Source of the DNA: Candidatus Cloacimonadales bacterium
GTDB lineage: Bacteria; Cloacimonadota; Cloacimonadia; Cloacimonadales; JAFGVF01
DNA length: 64,000 nucleotides
Reading direction: 5' to 3'
Assembly (NCBI GenBank): GCA_963667035.1
Contig: OY762964.1
Span: 1,888,001-1,952,000, forward strand
Every line of letters begins with the position of its first letter. Position 1 is the stretch's first letter. Below are positions 42,588-62,300 of the stretch, piece after piece. The notes under the pieces were generated by a model. It did no database searches and was not told the DNA's origin. It saw only the letters and a list, made by a program, of their open reading frames with translations. The translations under genes and the position numbers were made by a program.

Positions 42588-44708
42588 ATGGATTACACAA
42601 AAGATGAAATTATCAAAGCTGAAGTTCCGGAAGATGAACTCTTAGCAGCTGAAGAGGCTTTACGTCACCAAGCTGAAGAGAATGCTGATATAAAACCGGA
42701 AAAAGAAGAAAAACAACTAACTGAAGAAGAATCACAGCATCAGGCTATGATTGATCTTATTGATCAGTCTTTCCCAGATTACAGTGCAGGTCAGATCGTT
42801 GAAGGAACAGTTGTCTCCGTTAACGATAAGGAAGTACTTGTTGATATCGGTGGAAAATCTGAAGGTGCTATTCCTGTATCTGAATTCAGTTATTCAGGTG
42901 TACCTTCATTCATGGATAAAATCCAGGTGATGGTAACACGCTTCGACGAAGGCAGAATTAAGCTTTCCAAGAAAAAAGCAGATTTCAAAGTTAACCTTGT
43001 TAAGGTTAAAGAAATCTTCGAAGCACAAGACCGTGTGCAAGGCATTCTTAGACGCAGAGTTAAGGGCGGAATGATTGTTGAGATTTTAGGTCTTGAAGCC
43101 TTTTTACCAGGCTCTCAGATTGCTCTCAAACCAATTCCTAATCTGGATCAGTTTATTGGTAAAGAACATACTTTTTACATCATCAAATTAGATGAAGAAC
43201 GTCGTAACATCATAGTTTCACGCAAGAAAGTTCTTGAGGAAGACCTTGAAAGTAAGAAACATGAAATTATCGACAGTATTAAAATTGATGCCGAGCTTGA
43301 AGGTGAAGTTAAAAACATTACCAATTACGGTGCATTCATTGATTTAGGTGGAATAGACGGACTTCTTCACATTCAGGATATGTCATGGGGAAGAATTAAT
43401 CATCCATCAGAAATGTTGAATATTGGCGACAAGCTCAAAGTTAAAGTGATTGACTTCGATAAAGAAAGCGGTCGCGTTGCCCTAGGTCTCAAACAACTTG
43501 TTCCTGAGCCATGGGCAAATGTTGATGCTAATTACCCTGAAGGTAAACAGGTTAAAGGCAAGGTTGTAAATATAGTTAATTACGGTGCATTTGTTGAGCT
43601 TGAACCGGGTGTAGAAGGATTGATTCATGTTTCAGAAATGTCGTGGACAAAATCTATTGTTAACCCTCACAAGTATGTGAAGATTGGTGAAACTGTTAAT
43701 GCAATCGTTTTGGCTATTGATAAAGTTAGTCATAAAATTTCTCTCGGGATGAAGCAGATGGCTCCTAACCCTTGGGTATCAATTGACGAAAGATATCCTA
43801 TCGGAACTCCTATCGAACGTAAAGTTAAGAATATCACAGAGTTTGGTGTATTCCTTGAACTTGAAGACGGTATTGACGGACTTGTTCATATCTCTGACAT
43901 CTCTTGGACAAAGCGTATTTATCATCCAAGAGAAATGTTTAAGAAGGGACAAATGGTTAAGGCTGTTGTTCTTGCTGTAGACAGAACACTCCATCGCATT
44001 GCTCTTGGTATCAAACAGATGAGCATCGACCCATGGAATAGTCTTGATACTCTTTTACCTCTTAACACAGAAATTATTGGTAAAGTTTCAAAGCTTATAC
44101 CTAAGGGACTTCTTGTTGACATTCCTGTTGACGGAGCTTCTGTTGAGGGCTTTGTTCCTATCTCTCATTTAGCTATTCCTAACTTAGAGCATCCGGAAGA
44201 GTTCTTCAGAATGAATGAAGAGCTTCCTCTAAAAGTTATTGAGCTTGATATGGAAAACCGTCGTCTTATCCTGTCTGTTAAAGCTTATTTCTTCTCAAGA
44301 GACCTTGATCTTCAAGAGACCTATGTGCAGTTCCATAATGAACAGCATGAAGAGATTATGAAACATCTCGAAGAAGAAAGAAAACGTCGAGAAGAAAGAA
44401 AGAAAAAAACTTCAAAGAAAAAAGACAATCCTAAAGCTGAGAAGAAAGAAGAAACTCCTATTGAGGAAGTTGTAGCTCCTGAAGTACAGGAATCAGCTCC
44501 TGTAACAGAAGAAGTTATTTCTGAGACTGTAGTTCAAGAGCTGATAGCTCCTGAGGCTGTAACAGAAGAAATTCCTGCTGAGGAAGTTGTAACTCCGGAA
44601 GTAGAGGAATCAGTTCCTGTAACAGAAGAAACTCCTACTGAAGAAGTGGTAGAAGAATCAGCTCCGGTTGAAGAAGTTATTGAAACTACAGAAGAGCCAA
44701 AAGAATAA
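42588..44708 (+). CDS. rpsA: 30S ribosomal protein S1 with acidic repetitive C-terminal tail
   Basis: Tandem S1 domains (YGAFIDLGGIDGLLHI, YGAFVELEPGVEGLIHVSE); start set at ATG 42588 behind AGGAGG. Confidence 0.95.
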   Translation: MDYTKDEIIKAEVPEDELLAAEEALRHQAEENADIKPEKEEKQLTEEESQHQAMIDLIDQSFPDYSAGQIVEGTVVSVNDKEVLVDIGGKSEGAIPVSEFSYSGVPSFMDKIQVMVTRFDEGRIKLSKKKADFKVNLVKVKEIFEAQDRVQGILRRRVKGGMIVEILGLEAFLPGSQIALKPIPNLDQFIGKEHTFYIIKLDEERRNIIVSRKKVLEEDLESKKHEIIDSIKIDAELEGEVKNITNYGAFIDLGGIDGLLHIQDMSWGRINHPSEMLNIGDKLKVKVIDFDKESGRVALGLKQLVPEPWANVDANYPEGKQVKGKVVNIVNYGAFVELEPGVEGLIHVSEMSWTKSIVNPHKYVKIGETVNAIVLAIDKVSHKISLGMKQMAPNPWVSIDERYPIGTPIERKVKNITEFGVFLELEDGIDGLVHISDISWTKRIYHPREMFKKGQMVKAVVLAVDRTLHRIALGIKQMSIDPWNSLDTLLPLNTEIIGKVSKLIPKGLLVDIPVDGASVEGFVPISHLAIPNLEHPEEFFRMNEELPLKVIELDMENRRLILSVKAYFFSRDLDLQETYVQFHNEQHEEIMKHLEEERKRREERKKKTSKKKDNPKAEKKEETPIEEVVAPEVQESAPVTEEVISETVVQELIAPEAVTEEIPAEEVVTPEVEESVPVTEETPTEEVVEESAPVEEVIETTEEPKE

Positions 44709-51374: not shown

Positions 51375-52364
51375 TTATTTTCTCTCGAATGCTCTTTTAA
51401 CAATACATAAGATGTTTGTTCCATCAGAAGAGAATGTTGCTTCCCTAACAGAGCTTCTCAGAGTTAGAACAGTATTGTTTACCAAATCAATTAAGTAGTT
51501 TATATCCTTGCTATCATCTCCGACAAGAATCTTTGTTTGACTTGGAGAAAGAGCAATCTCACCGGATATATTGCTATATGATTGCCTTGTAAACTGATTA
51601 GTTGCCAAATCATAGTATGTAAGATAATTTACCCCTGAATCAACTTCTACACCTATAATCTTCCCTAACTCTTCACTGTATACCATTGATTTGAGAGTAA
51701 TCAACTTATTAACGTGCTCAATCCCTTGCAGATGATTCACTCTATAAAAATGGTCATCTGAAGAATAGTAATAGTTGCTATCATTAGCACAGCCAAGAAC
51801 TGTAGAATGTGATCTAACATGTGTAGTAGTCAATAGATAATCAAGTTTATCATTCACAATATCATATTTCATTAACATGAATCTATCAGCAAAACTTTCA
51901 TTGGTATCCTGCCAATAGAACACGAAATCTCCACTGTCTGAGAAACAAACACCTTTGACTGTTGTACTATTATCATTAATCAATACTGTTCCGCTCCCAT
52001 CACTATTAACTAAGAACAGGGCTTTACCTAACATAACAACAAATGCATCTCTATTCCTACTTACGGCTACTACATCATTCATATCAGGGACAATCATTCT
52101 GTAGTATTCGCCATCAGTTGTTAAGACTCTTATTTCATTGGTATAAGCCACTTCATCTTGCAGGATGTATTCTTGATTATCAATATTGATGTAGTTATAA
52201 TTTCCATCAGGTATATCCAGATAACTCAATATAGGACCATTCAATGATCTTATTGCAACATAATCTCTATAATAGTAATCTTTTGTTTCATCATCAAAAA
52301 GTGAACTGCACCCGTTAAGAATGATTGCTAAAGTTATAATAGACAGCAAATATATTCTTTTCAT
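51375..52364 (-). CDS. Hypothetical lipoprotein, TolB-like beta-propeller
   Basis: LNGC lipobox; FSDSGD, LSPSQTKI and FSSDGT blade-like motifs. Confidence 0.65.
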   Translation of the reverse strand: MKRIYLLSIITLAIILNGCSSLFDDETKDYYYRDYVAIRSLNGPILSYLDIPDGNYNYINIDNQEYILQDEVAYTNEIRVLTTDGEYYRMIVPDMNDVVAVSRNRDAFVVMLGKALFLVNSDGSGTVLINDNSTTVKGVCFSDSGDFVFYWQDTNESFADRFMLMKYDIVNDKLDYLLTTTHVRSHSTVLGCANDSNYYYSSDDHFYRVNHLQGIEHVNKLITLKSMVYSEELGKIIGVEVDSGVNYLTYYDLATNQFTRQSYSNISGEIALSPSQTKILVGDDSKDINYLIDLVNNTVLTLRSSVREATFSSDGTNILCIVKRAFERK

Positions 52365-52373
52365 GTAAACCCC

Positions 52374-53363
52374 CTAATCTACTTCAATCATACCGGCAAT
52401 ATATTCACCATATTCTGAAATTGACGGTTGGGTTTTAAATTTTTTACCTATTAATGTCTCATCCATAGTAGCAAGGTCAATCAAGTAGTTATCTATGATT
52501 ATGTTTTGCCCATCTCTGTAGAATTTAGGAAATGATACACCCTCAACGAACTCATTTATTTGCTTTCTATATATCTCTTCTCCTGATAGCATATCCATTA
52601 CAACCAATTGTTTTCCTGGAGTGTAATATGCTAATCTTTGAGCATCCATTTGATAATCAAAGAATGAGATATCCTCTTCCGTGATTGTTTCAAATGTTCC
52701 TGTTTCTAAATTGAGTAATGCTAGTTGCCCAAATATCGTGTTTCTTCCATAATCATAAAGTTTACCGATGATCAAATCATCATTAATAGATTTGCAATTA
52801 GAGAAGATATAACGACTATCAGAATAGATAATTCTCTTTTCCTGTGTTTCTATGTTTATGGAATATAGTGATCTAAGATCTCCATCTCTCGTTTGATATA
52901 TCAATTCGGTTTCGGAAGAGTTAAAGAAAGGCCATAGCATATTAGAAGATTCAGTAACTATGATTTTAGTCTCTCTTGTAACAACATCAACAATTCTTAA
53001 AATACCACCTGAATAATAGCATATCTTAGTGCCATTATTTGATAATGAGAAATCATCCGGTGTAATCCATTCATTAACTGAATTCCCGAATCTATCTAAT
53101 TCGTGACCTGAAGTCGTATACATTCTTAGATAAGAGCCGGTAATACCCATTAATCTATAGACTTCATCATTATCATCATCGGGATTAAAGAACATGTATG
53201 ACTGTTTATAAAAACCGGTAATCCTAGCAACTTCCTCTTGATCCAGATCCAATATTAAGACATTATAGTTATTTATGTCATAATCATTAAAGCCATCATC
53301 ATAACAACCGAATAACCAAACACCTATTAAAGTAAGTAAGATTGTTTTAGAAAATATTCTCAT
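52374..53363 (-). CDS. Hypothetical lipoprotein, TolB-like beta-propeller
   Basis: LFGC lipobox; LSNNGTKI, PFFN, PKFYRDG and PSISEYG blade-like motifs; same length (329 aa) as its neighbour. Confidence 0.65.
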   Translation of the reverse strand: MRIFSKTILLTLIGVWLFGCYDDGFNDYDINNYNVLILDLDQEEVARITGFYKQSYMFFNPDDDNDEVYRLMGITGSYLRMYTTSGHELDRFGNSVNEWITPDDFSLSNNGTKICYYSGGILRIVDVVTRETKIIVTESSNMLWPFFNSSETELIYQTRDGDLRSLYSINIETQEKRIIYSDSRYIFSNCKSINDDLIIGKLYDYGRNTIFGQLALLNLETGTFETITEEDISFFDYQMDAQRLAYYTPGKQLVVMDMLSGEEIYRKQINEFVEGVSFPKFYRDGQNIIIDNYLIDLATMDETLIGKKFKTQPSISEYGEYIAGMIEVD

Positions 53364-53698
53364 ATCCCCTCCTCCTATAACTCATTACTTATATATGTTT
53401 CTTATCCTCTAACTTTTTTCTCTCAAGAATAATCTTTATTACTATCATATTTGAACTAATAAAACTTTTATTGTCAAGAAAGAAATCCTAAAATGTCTAG
53501 TTTGTGTATAAAATTTTGTGAATTATCCAATTACTAGAAACTATCTACTTAGAACAGGTATAGAGTAACTTAGAACCGTAAATAAAAGCGGATAAAATAA
53601 ACTTACAACTGAAGGATAAAGTTAATAAAAGATATTGACCAAGATTAAATAAATGTATGATTTGGTTAATTAGTTTATAAGGGTGTAGGAGGTATGTT

Positions 53699-54370
53699 AT
53701 TAAACACTGTAGTTACATAGTTGTCAAATTTCCGGATATAGAGTTTCAAAGTAGAGATTTACCAAAACTGAGAGGTTTTTTTGCTAATAAATTCAAAGAT
53801 AACACTATCTTTCATAATCATTTACCGGATGGTAAATATTCTTATAGAATGCCATTGATACAATACCGGATAATTGATGGGTATCCTGCTTTGATAGGAA
53901 TCAGAGACGCAATAGACATAATCAAAGGACTGTTCTTTGATTTAAACGAAATCACTATTCTCGATAAACAGTTTGTAACAAATGAAAGAGAAGTCTGTTT
54001 TTTAGAAGAATCACTAGGGATAAGTGAAGACTACAAGAACTATATATTTTCATCTCCATGGTTAGCTCTTAATCAGGAGAATCATAAATCCTACAAACAA
54101 ATGCATCCGATAGAACAGAAACGTTTTCTAAACAGAATCTTAAAGAACAATCTTTTAACTCTCTCCAAAGGCTTTGAGTACTGGATCGAAAACTTTGATA
54201 AAGTAGAGCTTGAAGGATGGTTTCATGAGATACAAGTGAATTTTAAGAATAGAAAACTGATTGGTTTTAAGGGCGAGTTTACAACGAACTTTGCAATCCC
54301 TAAATATTTCGGACTAGGTAAACAGTCAGCTCGTGGATTTGGAGTTGTTGAACTGAAAAAGGAAGGATAA
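53699..54370 (+). CDS. cas6: CRISPR-associated endoribonuclease Cas6 (Cas6b type); apparent start codon ATT
   Basis: Frame is open 50 codons upstream of the listed ATG (IVVKFPD...LPKLRGFF...FHNHLPDG..YRMPLIQY), up to ATT 53699, 6 nt after AGGAGG. C-terminal GLGKQSARGFG loop. Confidence 0.85.
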   Translation: MKHCSYIVVKFPDIEFQSRDLPKLRGFFANKFKDNTIFHNHLPDGKYSYRMPLIQYRIIDGYPALIGIRDAIDIIKGLFFDLNEITILDKQFVTNEREVCFLEESLGISEDYKNYIFSSPWLALNQENHKSYKQMHPIEQKRFLNRILKNNLLTLSKGFEYWIENFDKVELEGWFHEIQVNFKNRKLIGFKGEFTTNFAIPKYFGLGKQSARGFGVVELKKEG

Positions 54371-56217
54371 TGATACATAAAATGTATGCTCTATATGATT
54401 TGTTTGGTGTTGATTTTGTCGAAAGTATGAATAATCAGTATGGACTCGTTAATGACGATGAAGAGCACATTGTAATCGTTCAAAACATTGAGTTGAAGAA
54501 TAATATTGCCTCTTTAGGTAGAATTGAAATGCTTCAATATAATAAACAGATGAATCTGAGGAACTTTTTTTATAAAAAAGCTCCCGGTCAGAGAAAGTCA
54601 CCTTTCCCCACTATTGTTGTGACTTTAGATTCATTAAGTCATGAGTCAAATGGGAAAAATGAGTTTGAATCAAAATTCTCAAGGAAGATATCAGCAATTC
54701 TTTCCGGAAATTGCAAAATTAACAAGGAATTGAAGCCAATACTGAATCTACATCAGAACGAAATTTCTATTATATCCGATACTCTTAAAGAGACAATATC
54801 CATTAAGCCGAAGGATAAGTATTTATATACAATCAAGATTAATGGTTTTTACACTGGAGAATCTGAGTATTATAATGGAATCAAAAAGAATAGTATCGAA
54901 AATCTATACTCAGGATATTATCATTTAAGTGAATCAAAAGAGATTCAAGGTAAGGATTTTACATGCTCAATCTGTAGAAGTAACTCAAAAACAGCATGGG
55001 GTTATGTTTCTACTTTCAATTTCTATACATCAAAAACAGACCATCAGCCAATTGCTGGTGGATTCATGAAGGAAAGAGCCCACTACAATTATCCTGTTTG
55101 CCCTGAATGTGCGGAAAAACTATATAAAATGAAACCTCTGATTGAGAATTATTTTAATTACAGATTCTGTGGACTCAACTACTTCTTGATACCTGAATTC
55201 ATTTCGGTAAGTTTAAACAAAAACTATATCAAAGATATATTGGAACTCTTTGTTACCGATAACAGAGAGGAAACCAAAATTGGAAAGTTAAGTCTCGGAA
55301 AAAATAGAAGTATTGTAGAAGATGATACCGAAGATATATTTGAGTCTTTATCTGAATCTAAGAACATAGCAAACTATACTATGCTATTCTATCAACAAAA
55401 CAATCAAGAGTTTAAAATTCTCTCTACTCTGGAAGGTATATTTCCCAGTCAATTCGAGAAGATTTTTACAACTAAAGATATTGTTGAATCTTATGAAGTT
55501 TTCCATAAACTAAAGGGTTTAAAGAAGGATGCTATCGATAATCATAAATTTACTTTCAACGGTATAGTTAAAGCCTTTTTCCCTATTAATAGTAAAATGG
55601 AAGGCGATTTTACAAAAGCTTTCTTAGAAATATCCAGAGCTATATTTATGCAGAGCACAATTGAGTATAATTATATCCTTGATAGGATTGTGAAAGTTAT
55701 CCGTAAACAGTTTATTAATGAACAATATTGGAGTATTTATACATTAAAAGGATTAATGTTGTTGCACTTTTTGATTGAATTAGGGTCAATAAATAAAGAG
55801 AAACCTAAATTTAAGGAGGTAAATTTGAATAAGAAGTATTGTGATTTCTTTACTGAACACAGTAGTGTTTTCGGTACGAATTCAGCAAAAGCCGTCTTTT
55901 TGATTGGAGTATTGTGCCAATTCCTTCTAAATATACAACAACGGGAAAGAAGCTGTACACCATTTAGGAAAAAGTTAAATAGTCTGAAGCTTAATCCTGA
56001 GTTAATAACAAAACTTTATCCACAGATTATCGAGAAATTGGAGCAATATGATTCCAACTATTACAAAGAATTGGAAACGGATATATCTAGTTTGCTGATA
56101 ACTGAAAGTCTGGACGTCCTTAACAATAATGAGATAAGTTTTTATTTTGTTTTGGGTATGACACTTAGTAAAAAACTTAAGATTGATAAAAATGAAAAAG
56201 GAGATAATAATGATTAA
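54370..56217 (+). CDS. cas8b: Type I-B large subunit Cas8b (TM1802/Csh1-like)
   Basis: CSIC...FYT...GGF...NYPVCPEC Zn motif, YFLIPE; C-terminal Cas11-like FL.GVL..LL.IQ...PF.K.L...ISFYFVLGM. Confidence 0.85.
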   Translation: MIHKMYALYDLFGVDFVESMNNQYGLVNDDEEHIVIVQNIELKNNIASLGRIEMLQYNKQMNLRNFFYKKAPGQRKSPFPTIVVTLDSLSHESNGKNEFESKFSRKISAILSGNCKINKELKPILNLHQNEISIISDTLKETISIKPKDKYLYTIKINGFYTGESEYYNGIKKNSIENLYSGYYHLSESKEIQGKDFTCSICRSNSKTAWGYVSTFNFYTSKTDHQPIAGGFMKERAHYNYPVCPECAEKLYKMKPLIENYFNYRFCGLNYFLIPEFISVSLNKNYIKDILELFVTDNREETKIGKLSLGKNRSIVEDDTEDIFESLSESKNIANYTMLFYQQNNQEFKILSTLEGIFPSQFEKIFTTKDIVESYEVFHKLKGLKKDAIDNHKFTFNGIVKAFFPINSKMEGDFTKAFLEISRAIFMQSTIEYNYILDRIVKVIRKQFINEQYWSIYTLKGLMLLHFLIELGSINKEKPKFKEVNLNKKYCDFFTEHSSVFGTNSAKAVFLIGVLCQFLLNIQQRERSCTPFRKKLNSLKLNPELITKLYPQIIEKLEQYDSNYYKELETDISSLLITESLDVLNNNEISFYFVLGMTLSKKLKIDKNEKGDNND

Positions 56218-57103
56218 AAGAACCGAGATTCTATTCTTGTATGATGTACAAAATGCAAATCCTAATGGAGACCCTTCAGATGAGAATAAGCCACGTATTG
56301 ATGAAGAAACAGGAATCAATATTGTTACTGATGTAAGGCTAAAAAGAACCATCAGAGATTATCTCATGAAATACAAAGGTTACAATGGAGAAAATGGAAA
56401 GGATATATTTATCCGTCAAACCAATGTTGATAATGATCCGGCTAAAGGATTAAATGACGCAAAAGGAAGAGCTGAAAACTTCAACAATGATGAAAATAAG
56501 ATTATTGAAACATGCATTGATGTAAGACTCTTCGGTGGTGTTATTCCTGTAAAGAAGACTGGTAAGAAAGACAGCTCAATTACTTTAACCGGTCCCGTTC
56601 AGTTTAAGATGGGGCAATCACTTCACAAAGTCAAGTTACAACACATAAAGGGAACGGGAGCATTTGCTTCTAAAGCAGGTGCAGAACAGCAAACATTTAG
56701 AGAAGAGTATATACTTCCTTATTCGTTGATTGCTTTCTATGGTATTATCAATGAAAATACTGCAAAGCACACTAAACTAAGGGAAGCTGATGTTGAAGAC
56801 CTCTTCGAAGCCATTTGGAATGGTACAAAACAACTAACTACCCGTTCAAAGTTTGAGCATAATCCTAGAATGTTGTTAACAATTGAGCATGATAATCCGA
56901 ATTTCTTTATCGGTAATCTAGATAAATACATTAGTCTCAAATCAGATAAAAAAGATGATGAGTTAAGAAATATTTCCGAGTTAGCTCTTGATATGGAGGC
57001 TCTAGTAATAAAACTGTCTGAGTTAAAAAAAGATGATAATAAATTCAAGGTTGTTATGCGTGAAAAAGACTCAAATCTAACACTTGAAAACTGGGATTAC
57101 TAA
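56210..57103 (+). CDS. cas7: Type I-B Cas7 (Csh2)
   Basis: NANPNGDP..ENKPRID, VTDVRLKRTIRDY, DVRLFGG, TGPVQF, TTRSK. Start set at the ATG of MIKRTE. Confidence 0.92.
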   Translation: MIKRTEILFLYDVQNANPNGDPSDENKPRIDEETGINIVTDVRLKRTIRDYLMKYKGYNGENGKDIFIRQTNVDNDPAKGLNDAKGRAENFNNDENKIIETCIDVRLFGGVIPVKKTGKKDSSITLTGPVQFKMGQSLHKVKLQHIKGTGAFASKAGAEQQTFREEYILPYSLIAFYGIINENTAKHTKLREADVEDLFEAIWNGTKQLTTRSKFEHNPRMLLTIEHDNPNFFIGNLDKYISLKSDKKDDELRNISELALDMEALVIKLSELKKDDNKFKVVMREKDSNLTLENWDY

Positions 57104-57117
57104 ACATGGAGGACTAA

Positions 57118-57834
57118 ATGACTCCAGAAAGAGTATTAGTATTTGATTTAGCAGGTGATTACGCCCAGTTCAGGAAGTTCTTCACAAATATGTCTCCTAC
57201 TACTTTTTCAGTACCACCCCGTACTGTTATCGTAGGAATTATTGGAGCAATAATCGGAATTGATAAAAGCATCAATCCTAGTATATATCATGAAAAAAGT
57301 AGTTTTGTTGGTATCAAACTGTTAAAACCGATTAAGAAAACATCGATTACAATGAACTATATTAAAGCAGTTACAATGTCTCAGATTAATCGATTTAAGA
57401 ACCATAAACCAACTAACATAGAGTTCTTGAAGGATGTGGCATATAGAATCTATTTCTCTCACACAGATGATAAAATATACAATGAGTTAAAATCAATGCT
57501 GTCTCAAAACGGTTCTTATTACTCTATCTCATTAGGATTAAGTAATTGTCTTGCTGAGTATGAGTTTCGTGGTGAATTCGCAATCGAGAAAGGCTCCAAT
57601 AATGCTAAGTATAGTATCGCCTCAGTAATACCTTATGAAATGATAAAAGAGCTTATCTTTAGTGAGAAGTTACATATTCGTAAGGATACCATTCCAGGGA
57701 CAATGAATGCAGATAGAAAAGTGACTAATTATAGAGAAATAATATTTGAGACTGAAGGGCACTCCATAGAGATAGTACCGCAAGAGCCACCATTATATAT
57801 CAAAAATCTCGATGAATATATTTATGGAATCTGA
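57118..57834 (+). CDS. cas5: Type I-B Cas5
   Basis: FDLAGDYAQFRK...TFSVPPRT..GIIGAIIG, YRIY and SLG motifs. Confidence 0.9.
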   Translation: MTPERVLVFDLAGDYAQFRKFFTNMSPTTFSVPPRTVIVGIIGAIIGIDKSINPSIYHEKSSFVGIKLLKPIKKTSITMNYIKAVTMSQINRFKNHKPTNIEFLKDVAYRIYFSHTDDKIYNELKSMLSQNGSYYSISLGLSNCLAEYEFRGEFAIEKGSNNAKYSIASVIPYEMIKELIFSEKLHIRKDTIPGTMNADRKVTNYREIIFETEGHSIEIVPQEPPLYIKNLDEYIYGI

Positions 57835-60121
57835 GTTACTTTCACATCCTAAGATAACGCTTGACGAACACCTTACAAGTGTTTATTTAAGAGGAATTAA
57901 ACTATTTGAGAAGAATAGAGTTTTCTCGGAATTAAAAAGGATTCTGGAAATCTCTCTTCTCTTTCATGATCTTGGCAAAGCTTCTAAACACTTTCAGAAT
58001 TACATAAGAGGAACAGAACTCAAAAGTAACAGTTCTAGGCATTCCGGAATTTCTGCTGCCTGGACATATCTATATCTCTCCAAGTTGCTTAAGCTATCCG
58101 AGCTCGATTCATTATTAGGTTACCTGATTGTGAGGAAACATCATAACAATTTTGATGACATTAAACAAATGCTTATAATGCCTGATGAAAGCTTGTTAGA
58201 GATAAGTGAAAATATAGACTATGACAAGCTTGTCAAAATCTATTCTAAAGCACTGGACGATTGTATCGTTATTGAACATGACATGTTTGTAGAGTTTCTT
58301 AAGCAATTAGAAACCAAATCACTATACAGGAGATTGAGAAGACATATTAAATCCCTTCCAAATGACTATTGGATAAAGCTAAATTATTTGTTTTCAATCT
58401 TAGTATATGCTGATAAAGAAGAAGCAATTTTCCACTCTAAAGTAGACTCGTCTGACACCAGATATTGGAAACAATCTTTTGTTCCAAACTATATTCAGTC
58501 TCTTCCTAAAACTGAAAGTTTTCTAAACAGTTTAAGAGCAAAAGCTTTTAATAATCTGAATGAATTAACACCAAGACAAGGTATTCAATCAATAAACCTT
58601 CCAACCGGATTAGGAAAAACATTATCAACATTAAATTATGCAATAAAGCTAAAGGACTCATTAAATAGTAATAGTAGTATAATCTACTGCTTACCTTTTA
58701 CATCAATCATTGATCAAAACTTCAATGTCTTTAAGAATGTGTTCCAAATGAATAACTTAAGTTATACTAATAATGCTTTGTTATCCCATCATCATTTAGT
58801 AGATTTAAACTTCATTGGTACTAGCGATTTCAGTCTACATGAATCTGAATTTCTTATTGAGACTTGGAACAGCGAGTTAATTGTAACTACATTTGTGCAA
58901 ATAATCTTAACGCTGTTTTCATTCAGGAACACTTCTTTAAAGAGATTTCATAAATTAGCAAATTCAATAATAATCTTGGATGAGGTACAAAGTATTCCAT
59001 CGGAATACTGGTCACTTATTAGAAAGGGCTTACAAGCTATCTGTGATTATATGAATGCGACCGTTATTCTGGTTACAGCTACGATGCCCTTAATCTTTGA
59101 GAAAAATACATTAGTTGAACTGATTTCAGATAAAGAAAGTTTTTTTGGTAAAATGAATAGAGTAACTCTTGATGTAAGCTTACTCAATAAAAAGACTGAT
59201 ATAAATACATTCATAGACACTATCCTTGGCAGATATAATACTAAACCTGATATAAACAGACTTATCATAGTTAACACAATTCAATGCTCAATACAGCTTT
59301 ATGAGGCACTAAGACTAGAACTTGATTCAGAGAGATTAATCTATCTATCATCTAATGTTATTCCTAAACATCGTTTAAGTAGAATTAATAAAATTAAAGC
59401 TGAACCCGGAAAAGGATTTATCATTGTTTCTACCCAAGTAGTTGAGGCAGGTGTTGATATTGATGTTGAGGAAGTTTATAGGGATTTAGCTCCTTTAGAC
59501 TCAGTAATACAGGCATCAGGAAGATGTAATAGAAATGCTATTGGGAATCAAGGTAATGTTGTACTGATACAATTAACTAACAACAATAGGTTTTATTGGA
59601 GTTTTGTTTATGATCAAGTTTTAATTCAAGCCACAACCAATTCCATTGTCTCCCTGAATAAAATGATTATTCCTGAGATTGATTACCCTAAGTTAACAAA
59701 GCGATACTATTACTCTTTAAATGAAGCAATATCTTAAACAAAATCGGACATGATATGGCAATCTCTAACCTCACTGAATTATTCGCAAGCTTTGGATAAT
59801 ACTAATAATGATAAATATGTATTATCGCTATTTAATGACCATAAAACAACAACTGTTTTTGTGGAAATCGACAATAGTGCTACCCAAGTCATGCAAGAAT
59901 TTTGTTCTCTTGAACTTAATCCTGACGAGAATGAATATGAGTTTAGAGCTCGTAAAAGAGATGCCTACAGAAAGTTATCTCCATACATCATAAATGTTCC
60001 TGAGAAGTATCTTAAAACAGAAAATAACCTGTATATACTAAATAAGGATATGTTAAGAACTATGTATGACGGAGATACAGGATTTAAACGCATGTCTAAA
60101 CAAGAGGACTTTATACTATGA
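57812..60121 (+). pseudogene. cas3: Cas3 HD-nuclease/helicase interrupted by an in-frame TAA
   Basis: HD (FHDLGK), PTGLGKT, DEVQ, TATMP, QASGRCNR. TAA at 59735-59737 is followed by the same frame to 60121. Confidence 0.88.
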
Positions 60122-61149
60122 TGCAACTATTTATAAATACTTATGGAACATATATAAAAAAGCACGATGATATGTTTGAACTTGTTATTGATGGCAAGAA
60201 AACAAAGATAACTCCTGAGAAAGTAAGCTCAATAGTAATCACAAACGGAGTCATGTTAACTTCAGATGTTATAAAGCTTGCAATGGATTATAATATTGAT
60301 ATAATCTTTCTTGATGAGTTTGGTGACCCATACGGAAGAATATGGTATCCAAAAATTGGTAGTACAGTTGCTATCAGAAGAAGACAATTGGAAATAATGG
60401 GAGAACCTATTTCTTTGGATTTTATCAAGTACACAATACATTCTAAGATGTCCAACCAGTTAGCTTTTGTTAAGAAGCTTCTTTCTTAACGTGATATCAC
60501 TACAGATGATTATATGAGAAGATTTCGCAGTATGAAAGAGATATTCAATAATTTACATGAAGCTACCGGTTCTCTGGATAATCTATCAAATTCTATACGA
60601 GGTTGGGAAGGTAGTTTCTCTCGTATTTACCTCGAAATACTCAATAACATTATTCCCAAGGCATACAAGTTTTCAGGGAGAAGTAAAAGACCTGCAAAAG
60701 ATGCTTTTAATGCTTTTCTGAACTATGGATATGGTATTCTATATAGTAGAGTCGAAAGAGCCCTTATTATTGCAGGATTAGATCCTTATGTCAGATTTCT
60801 TCATACAGACAACTTTAACAAGAAATCATTAGTCTTTGATTTCATTGAACCATATCGGGATTTAGTTGACGAACAAGTATTTTACATCTTTTCTAAAAGA
60901 CAGTTTAAACAGGAATTCATTGAAGAAATCAAGGATGGTGTAAAAGTTTCCACCGACGGTAAGAAGTTCTTTATCTCAATCCTCATGGAAAGCTTCGATG
61001 AGATAATCAGATACAGAAACAAAAATCGGAAAAGGATTGATACTATCCAAGCGGATGCTCATGCTTTTGCTAACTATTTAATTGGCTGTAATGAAGCATA
61101 TAAAGAGAATTCTGTTGAAACTAGGATTAACAACTTACTTAAGGAATAG
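60118..61149 (+). pseudogene. cas1: Cas1 interrupted by an in-frame TAA
   Basis: TAA at 60487-60489; the 60514 ORF is in the same frame (RGWEG, NAFLNYGYGIL, GLDPYV.FLH, DFIEPYR). Confidence 0.9.
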
Positions 61150-61158
61150 GTGTCAACA

Positions 61159-61449
<291 letters not shown>

Positions 61450-61451
61450 TT

Positions 61452-62042
61452 ATGAATATTGATTACTATATAACATCTTCGGATGTAATCGAATACCTTT
61501 TCTGCCCCGCTTTTACTTACTTCATGCATGTTTTGAATATTGAGCAAAACGAAAAAAGAAGATTTCTTGTTACTAAAGGGATTGATATACATGAAAAGAA
61601 TCTTGTTAGGAACAAAGACTATCTAAGAAAGAAAGCTGGAGCAGTAAAAAAAGAGTCTGATTTATATCTTACTTCTGATAAACTGAAAATTGTCGGAAGA
61701 CTTGATGAGCTACTGTTTCTTGAAGATGGGACTGTTGCCCCCCTAGATTATAAATACGCTTATTGGGATAATAAATTGTACAGAACATATAAAATGCAAC
61801 AAACGCTCTATGCTCTTCTAGCTGAAGAACACTTCAACTCTATGTCCAATAAAGCTTTCATCGTCTATGTTAGAAGTAAGAAGAAATTAGTTGATTTTGA
61901 TGTTACTCCAACACTCAAAATGGAGGCAATATCTATTGTACACGACATCTTGGATATTATCTCTAATTCCAAATTCCCACAAATTAACAGTTCATCAATG
62001 AAATGCTCTGATTGCACCTATCGAAACATCTGTATTAAATAG
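61452..62042 (+). CDS. cas4: Cas4 RecB-like nuclease
   Basis: EYLFCP, GRLDE, PLDYK, QQTLYA, CSDCTYRNIC. Confidence 0.9.
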   Translation: MNIDYYITSSDVIEYLFCPAFTYFMHVLNIEQNEKRRFLVTKGIDIHEKNLVRNKDYLRKKAGAVKKESDLYLTSDKLKIVGRLDELLFLEDGTVAPLDYKYAYWDNKLYRTYKMQQTLYALLAEEHFNSMSNKAFIVYVRSKKKLVDFDVTPTLKMEAISIVHDILDIISNSKFPQINSSSMKCSDCTYRNICIK

Positions 62043-62170
62043 TATTTTGAGTATTTTGGCGAACAACATTGTTACTATAATAAATAGACATATCAATGAA
62101 TTTATCAGATATCCATTTCTGATATTTCTTCTTAATTATATGGTATTTAAATATATACGTGAGATTATGA

Positions 62171-62207
62171 TTACTTACCCACTATCCATTAAATCAAGGA
62201 TTCATTT
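62171..62207 (+). CRISPR. Solitary degenerate CRISPR repeat after an AT-rich leader-like region; no array
   Basis: ttacttacccactatccattaaatcaaggattcattt resembles 37-nt repeats ending CCATTAAAACAAGGATTGAAAC; located 128 bp after cas4. Confidence 0.55.
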
Positions 62208-62210
62208 TGT

Positions 62211-62300
62211 TAATCCCAAGGGTATTAAATATGAGATTCTTGTACGAAGTGTATGGGAATAATATTTAAAATGATACATCGATCCCGAAGTGGGTCGAAT
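62211..62300. repeat. Degenerate REP-like arm
   Basis: taatcccaagggtattaaatatgag matches 21/25 to taatccctatgggattaaatgtgag (30589); distal hairpin gatcccgaagtgggtc. Confidence 0.5.

Follow-up and report, generated by a model that had tools for sequence, protein, structure and literature searches.

We report the analysis of a stretch of DNA of 64,000 nucleotides (nt), hereafter the window (bases 1888001-1952000 of a genome that forms one contig, 3,102,113 bases long with 35.6% G+C), from an uncultured member of the Cloacimonadota originating from a digester. The window carries an operon of eight cas genes belonging to a CRISPR-Cas system, all on the + strand between window positions 53699 and 62207, in the order cas6-cas8b-cas7-cas5-cas3-cas1-cas2-cas4 and followed by a leader and array (Table 1). 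The same gene order was found in all 12 related genome loci that were fetched first; cas6 and cas8b overlap and the remaining gaps in the operon are 14 nt or shorter. Judging from the protein family matches, the locus is of type I-B, with the Cas8b signature subunit and the Cas7 (Csh2)/Cas5b backbone both present (on cas8b, TIGR02556 scored 153.7, slightly below its cut-off of 156.95), and lacks a full-length Cas3, a working Cas1-Cas2(-Cas4) adaptation module and an adjacent repeat-spacer array. Specifically, cas3, cas1 and cas2 are each interrupted by one in-frame stop codon, cas6 is without a canonical start codon, and cas8b, cas7, cas5 and cas4 are all of normal length and open, the last point as stated in a previous reading of this DNA made from its letters and ORF list (the sequence-only reading; ORF, open reading frame).

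Table 1. Features of the predicted type I-B locus (window positions) and of the orphan arrays with the same repeat (genome positions). For each cas gene the last two columns give the changed among the conserved alignment columns and the relative rate (outgroup distance vs sister loci). aa, amino acids.
Feature	Position	Strand	Evidence or remark	Changed/conserved columns	Relative rate
Shine-Dalgarno-like hexamer AGGAGG	53687..53692	+	read directly; 6 nt ahead of ATT 53699		
cas6 (Cas6b)	53699..54370	+	Pfam Cas6b_C 124.5 bits; frame open from 53681	1/30	0.93
cas8b (large subunit), open, 615 aa	54370..56217	+	Pfam Cas_TM1802 331.1 bits; NCBIfam Cas8b/Csh1 128.9 vs cut-off 104.05	4/52	0.94
cas7 (Csh2), open; likely start ATG 56192 or 56210	56183..57103	+	NCBIfam Cas7/Csh2 279.1 bits vs cut-off 171.55	2/104	0.99
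cas5 (Cas5b), open, 238 aa	57118..57834	+	NCBIfam Cas5b 120.3 bits vs cut-off 97	2/24	0.99
cas3 (HD nuclease + helicase), interrupted	57812..60121	+	cas3_HD residues 17-202; cas3_core residues 261-612	5/116	1.04
cas1, interrupted	60118..61149	+	NCBIfam cas1 258.5 bits, match spans stop	3/32	0.97
cas2, interrupted	61150..61449	+	Pfam CRISPR_Cas2 80.7 bits, residues 4-77, match spans stop; other family score 63.1 bits	0/24	0.93
cas4, open, 196 aa	61452..62042	+	NCBIfam cas4 118.4 bits vs cut-off 65	4/49	1.06
Leader core, ~75 nt	62096..62169	+	aligns with leaders of four orphan arrays elsewhere in genome		
Single CRISPR repeat, degenerate terminal type	62170..62207	+	31/38 matches to consensus		
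Trailer	62208..62300	+	common to ends of three orphan arrays; also resembles dispersed repeat family		
Orphan array	663177-663437		4 repeats		
Orphan array	758715-759046		5 repeats, including degenerate last one		
Orphan array	~1785026-1785249		3 repeats + one degenerate		
Orphan array	1863004-1863114		2 repeats		

The stop in cas3 is a TAA at 59735-59737, codon 642 of about 770; the part ahead of it comprises 641 aa with the HD domain and the helicase core retained, and the same frame stays open for the ~127-128 C-terminal codons beyond. A TAA at 60487-60489 occupies codon 124 of 343 in cas1 and a TAG at 61315-61317 codon 56 of 99 in cas2, and in both genes the same frame is then open to the normal end. 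One in-frame stop in each of the three genes and no frameshift was also what the sequence-only reading had described, and the ORF listing, the read-through translations and the alignments of the relatives all agree with it. The read-through products (with X at the stop) are 769, 343 and 99 residues long, the corresponding ORFs of relatives 759-811, 325-354 and 96 aa, and single tblastn segments against close relatives covered fractions of 0.98-1.00 (cas3), 0.94-0.99 (cas1) and 0.94-0.99 (cas2). At the cas1 stop column all 12 of the closest relatives have Lys, mostly encoded by AAA, and at that of cas2 Glu or Asp is found in the closest relatives; in cas3 the relatives vary at the stop column. 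Every stop thus lies a single substitution away from a sense codon. Broken genes are otherwise uncommon in the family: among 998 gene copies from related loci (the collections overlap and include some duplicates) 4 have a short ORF, vs three of eight here. Selection on the locus as a whole is clearly relaxed.

The stops were checked against the Logan contigs of three runs, and in the long pieces over 53600-62300 (8701 bases) there were no differing letters. The three runs represent one sample of one study, from which the assembly itself may derive, with a k-mer depth of 4.4-7.6 per run, and Logan contigs drop rare variants and minority alleles. We take it that the genotype dominant in that sample truly carries the stops. 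Two apparent joints (55497>57472 and 57192>60147) were considered as deletions and rejected; their sides are just 21-23 letters long with 90% likeness and they are read as stray matches to contigs of other organisms. Stop-codon reassignment was also rejected, given that TAA and TAG terminate other genes and that no suppressor tRNA was found: among the 49 predicted tRNA genes there is none for TAA or TAG, and tRNA-SeC is the sole stop reader.

The catalytic motifs of the interrupted genes are preserved. In Cas3, the HD, Walker A, DEVQ, TAT and QxxGRxNR motifs are intact, as in 117 of 117 relatives, and all motifs checked are thus retained in the truncated protein, as had been proposed. The Cas1 Glu/His/Asp residues are likewise intact, as in 67-78 of 78 relatives, and the sole exception among the checked positions is R226 (codon AGA at 60793-60795). 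This is the substitution within GLDPYVRFLH to which the sequence-only reading drew attention; it replaces a near-invariant Gly (G in 74 of the 78 relatives, S in four) three residues ahead of the catalytic His.

The view that the Cascade genes stay open holds for their frames but not for the start of cas6. Though the cas6 frame is open further upstream, its earliest ATG, GTG or TTG, at 53849, corresponds to codon 51 in the protein alignment, and ~50 N-terminal residues lie upstream of it (residues 2-50 of the ATG-started ORF match positions 52-100 of the Cas6b_N profile). The start position of the relatives, where 11 of 11 have ATG (10) or GTG (1), is here occupied by the ATT at 53699; the relatives have GGAGG five nt ahead of their ATG. 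On this alignment the ATT would be either a lost start codon or a very weak start, and the Cascade side is not untouched, because cas6 is without a canonical start. A promoter scan upstream of cas6 was uninformative (2 sites vs 3.4 expected).

Beside the cas genes the array is indeed down to one repeat, and since the leader is followed by a single repeat of the terminal type it holds zero spacers. This repeat ends ...GGATTCATTT instead of ...GGATTGAAAC, a form that also closes two other arrays (663 kb and 1863 kb). No further repeat-like sequence was found in the locus and its flanks (best 19-22/38 vs a 95th percentile of 22-24 for shuffled sequences), a search that very degenerate repeats would escape. 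The reduction does not extend to the genome as a whole: a search for other arrays with this repeat, as the sequence-only reading had suggested, found four orphan mini-arrays with the same repeat and leader. These hold 1-4 spacers each (11 different spacers in total) and have ~250 nt upstream of the first repeat in common, four of the five arrays have the trailer, and the local leader is 87% identical over 108 nt to that at 663 kb. The orphan arrays sit amid dispersed repeats, which may have spread them. In related loci the same repeat family, ending ...CAAGGATTGAAAC, directly follows cas4; the spans that were fetched contain 2-85 copies, with two or more matches in 29 of the 172 loci. Because related loci carry it there, the repeat belongs with this family of cas loci, and the array has indeed been lost locally.

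The spacers were also compared with the genome for self-matches, which yielded partial matches for two of the 11 and no full-length match elsewhere in the genome for any. The two are the oldest spacers of their arrays and match a palindromic, REP-like repeat family at dozens of genome sites over 26-28 nt, exactly or nearly so: spacer 4 of the 758-kb array (758753-758787) over 28 nt and spacer 3 of the 1785-kb array (1785026-1785063) over 26-27 nt. These matches cover 28/35 and 27/38 contiguous positions at best, and in both the first 7-8 spacer positions, where the seed of type I systems lies, are excluded. In the newest spacer of the 758-kb array (758974-759008) the first 13 nt match near one end of a 16-copy element (e.g. 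30990, 755747 and 2180802), the copies of which share more than 100 identical nt; by our own estimate about two such matches are expected per spacer in a 3.1-Mb genome, and this one is probably due to chance. The first 26 nt of four of the 11 spacers had no exact match in viral_contigs.

We also asked how far the broken and the open genes differ in constraint. No near relative of the locus was found among 40 related genomes, genome_contigs (best Cas7 71%), metagenome_contigs (best 72%) or a collection of 5.8 billion proteins (best Cas3 49%); the best identities were 71-72% for Cas7, 61% for Cas1, 72% for Cas2 and 43-49% for Cas3. Synonymous divergence (dS; NG86, six closest relatives per gene) could not be defined for 41 of the 48 pairs and lay at 1.86-2.85 for the remaining seven, and because dS is saturated the ratio of nonsynonymous to synonymous divergence (dN/dS) was unusable. 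Alignment columns conserved in at least 90% of sequences were therefore scored, using 64-143 sequences per gene (coverage 0.85 or higher, length no more than 20% off the median, complete in the contig, identical sequences dropped). Changes at such columns number 8 of 172 in cas3, cas1 and cas2 vs 13 of 259 in the five open genes (two Arg are among the four changed in cas4), and for no gene is this genome at the extreme of the distribution. In the relative-rate test neither cas1 nor cas2 had diverged in excess on this lineage (Table 1). The tests of conserved columns, relative rate and motifs all point to recent breaks, and none of them separates broken from open genes.

As to the placement of the stops, 5.3% of all point changes in the locus would create a stop; the sites concerned are evenly distributed, and 50.2% of them fall in cas6, cas8b, cas7 and cas5. 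Three random stops would all lie outside these four genes with P = 0.124, which bears out the caution of the sequence-only reading that, with so few lesions, chance cannot be set aside, and if the cas6 start is counted one of the four knock-out-type changes is on the Cascade side. As possible nonsense pseudogenes, 594 same-frame neighbouring open segments were counted genome-wide, too many to sort without homology searches.

Whole-genome family searches identified this as the sole type I locus, with one Cas7, one Cas6b, three Cas1 (one with the TAA) and three Cas2 (one with the TAG); cas3_core gave five matches, one of them above the cut-off. The genome has four CRISPR systems: the type I-B system is broken, and those of type III, type II and type VI-B are open. 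The type III locus (383500-399500) encodes a Cas10-like protein of 499 aa, a Csx10-like protein, several RAMPs, a fusion of reverse transcriptase (RT) and Cas1, and Cas2; the fusion is 854 aa long with a weak Cas6-like N-terminus ahead of the RT and Cas1 parts, and the locus is flanked by two arrays with a 36-nt repeat (384-399 kb). At the type II locus (1029000-1042000) there are Cas9 (1055 aa), Cas1, Cas2 and a 14-repeat array at 1033 kb, in which one spacer occurs twice, near 1033248 and 1033531. The type VI-B locus (1960000-1978000; 14 kb past the window end) has Cas13b (1053 aa, 584 bits) and then a 5-repeat array at 1969.2 kb. The type I-B locus was not found in the three genomes of the same genus that were searched (99%, 83% and 72% complete), one of which gave a single 40-nt match. 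The locus thus appears to be accessory, being missing from these three genomes, and redundant, the other three systems being open, and because it is both its loss would be cheap.

Of the five immediate flanking ORFs, two are without a Pfam family and the other three encode a racemase-like protein, a GNAT protein and a CHASE2 cyclase; there are no transposition genes among them. Directly upstream of the operon, two neighbouring ORFs of 329 aa on the - strand (window 51375-52364 and 52374-53363) are without a Pfam family. A tandem repeat of period 60 (3.5 copies, 63% matches) at window 44447-44652 probably lies within a coding region. Among the related type I-B loci, four (L118, L120, L122 and L123) gave no cas1 or cas2 match; three of these have a cas3 ORF of 935 aa and a cas4 match with a coverage of just 0.71, and they may represent a Cas3-Cas4 fusion or an adaptation-less variant. 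In another relative (L025; G013:C1 1993000-2008000) cas8b is in two matches ~2.4 kb apart, a likely insertion.

Taken together, we consider it probable that the locus represents the very recent, ordinary decay of a redundant accessory type I-B system. The sequence-only reading had offered two accounts, early decay after array loss and a non-cutting Cascade kept by selection. On balance early decay is favoured, because the motifs are intact, the changes at conserved columns do not differ between broken and open genes, cas1 and cas2 are not accelerated and cas6 has lost its canonical start, and "after array loss" is true locally alone. Single-base substitutions created the stops in cas3, cas1 and cas2, ATT occupies the cas6 start position and the adjacent array has been emptied of its spacers. 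With Cas1 and Cas2 truncated, spacer uptake by this system is presumably gone; DNA cutting would be gone or crippled because Cas3 is without its last ~128 residues, a part present in all relatives, and guide processing would be weak at best because cas6 would need an AUU start. Production of Cas8b, Cas7 and Cas5 is still possible, and the four orphan arrays could supply them with guides, a use for which there is no sign of selection. Cost, past self-targeting and plain drift are all possible triggers.

Compared with other type I-B systems of Cloacimonadota and allied anaerobes (Cas8b/Csh1, Cas7/Csh2, Cas5b and Cas6b), the locus agrees in the eight genes and their order, the repeat family and the read-through protein lengths. 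It differs in the three stops, the ATT at the cas6 start and one adjacent repeat instead of 2-85, and the nearest relatives range from 43% (Cas3) to 72% (Cas2) identity. Degraded CRISPR-Cas loci with cas pseudogenes are known, and passages of one paper discuss them for self-targeting genomes (PMC7708048). The present locus resembles the loci of those passages in its cas pseudogenes, its shrunken array and some spacers that match the own genome, but has no full-length self-match, and its decay is at the first step with motifs intact. It is an unusually fresh new example of a degraded CRISPR-Cas locus, not a new kind of system.

Several observations weigh against ordinary decay. At this divergence (relatives 43-72% identical, dS saturated) the tests for relaxed constraint are low in power. 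For the exact pattern, in which cas3, cas1 and cas2 receive a single stop apiece, P is 0.0064, a value for a pattern defined post hoc, and the lesions hit precisely the genes that are dispensable for a non-cutting Cascade. Four knock-out-type point changes and zero frameshifts make an odd spectrum for neutral decay, in which frameshifts are usually at least as common as point lesions. Initiation at AUU is possible at a low level, and cas6 is perhaps not dead. Moreover, all reads come from one low-depth sample.

Some of these observations would suit the selected retention of a non-cutting Cascade of Cas8b, Cas7, Cas5 and weakly made Cas6, acting as a repressor or a CreTA-like antitoxin with cas3, cas1, cas2 and cas4 free to decay, a reading that we regard as unlikely. 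It would account for the three stops all lying outside cas6, cas8b, cas7 and cas5, a distribution that, as given above, chance produces with P = 0.124, and for the persistence of four orphan arrays with intact repeats and a common ~250-nt upstream module. The spacer matches to the palindromic repeats and of the newest 758-kb spacer to the 16-copy element could be taken as its targets, but the former omit the first 7-8 spacer positions and the latter is of a length expected by chance. The changes at conserved columns are no fewer in the Cascade genes (9/210) than in the broken ones. There is also a precedent: in haloarchaeal type I-B systems, according to passages of PMC9458426, degenerate repeats beside the cas genes yield a guide (CreA) with which Cascade silences a toxin without Cas3, making the effector genes addictive, and the toxin RNAs carry no sequence signature. 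The same passages (PMC9458426) have Cas6 as required for CreA maturation, and cas6 is here without a canonical start. The CreTA/CreR circuit would predict exactly the pattern seen here, and the likeness extends to the type, the lone degenerate repeat beside the cas operon, the open effector genes and a cas3 that is dispensable for the circuit; a preprint on CreR (10.1101/2023.03.10.532045) reportedly describes similar mini-arrays that repress cas genes. On the other side, the operon, which has no intergenic room, and its surroundings yielded no repeat-spacer-repeat mini-array, and no second repeat-like sequence rose above shuffled controls in the locus and flanks; the lone repeat is an ordinary terminal repeat that also ends other arrays, the cas6 start is damaged and no toxin was identified among the sequences analysed, in tests that RNA toxins and very degenerate repeats would escape. 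That the Cascade genes are kept specifically as a Cas3-free repressor, guided by the lone terminal repeat with the conserved trailer or by an orphan mini-array, with a CreT-like toxin or multi-copy genome elements as possible targets, seems to us improbable. Transposon-borne type I-B and I-F Cascades are naturally without Cas3, and the locus is like them in that its Cascade genes are accompanied by neither a working Cas3 nor a working adaptation module; unlike in those, cas3, cas1 and cas2 are here present and almost intact, and the flanking ORFs lack transposition genes. If the Cascade is retained, processed guides with the 8-nt ATTGAAAC handle would be expected from the four orphan arrays, and if it is under selection the locus would be a natural bacterial type I system caught turning from immunity into a pure regulator.

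The system may instead have been knocked out by selection, having become harmful through self-targeting or through targeting a useful mobile element, so that cas3 mutants swept first and the rest drifted. We find this doubtful. Two of the 11 spacers derive from the palindromic repeat family with its dozens of genome sites, and passages of PMC7708048 link self-targeting spacers with degraded systems and cas pseudogenes; the present genome, however, has no full spacer match, the seed positions of the best ones are unmatched, later spacers were acquired with these oldest ones already present, and the separate stops in cas1 and cas2 are left unexplained. It is very unlikely that the system still works, its pieces being translated separately or the stops read through to give split but active Cas3, Cas1 and Cas2. 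In-frame ATG codons follow the three stops after 4, 8 and 13 codons and all catalytic motifs are intact, but these ATGs are not preceded by a Shine-Dalgarno-like sequence, the genome has no tRNA for TAA or TAG, the breaks lie inside the folded Cas1 and Cas2 domains and not at domain borders, short ORFs are rare in relatives, and the other Cas3 relatives listed in the protein collection are all 692-824 aa long. Equally, we give little credence to assembly errors at low coverage or to one strain's alleles in a mixed population. The low k-mer depth, the shared sample, study and possibly assembly source of the runs, and the loss of rare variants from contigs would allow for it, but three separately assembled runs agree in every letter over the locus, and four independent knock-out substitution errors in one 8.5-kb operon would be a remarkable coincidence.

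If recent, ordinary decay is the correct account, as we think probable, the locus would provide a clean and in principle datable example of the first step in the loss of a CRISPR-Cas system, with one lesion per gene and the catalytic residues still present. Finally, it would document, as found in nature, which genes are the first to break when a genome carries four CRISPR types.

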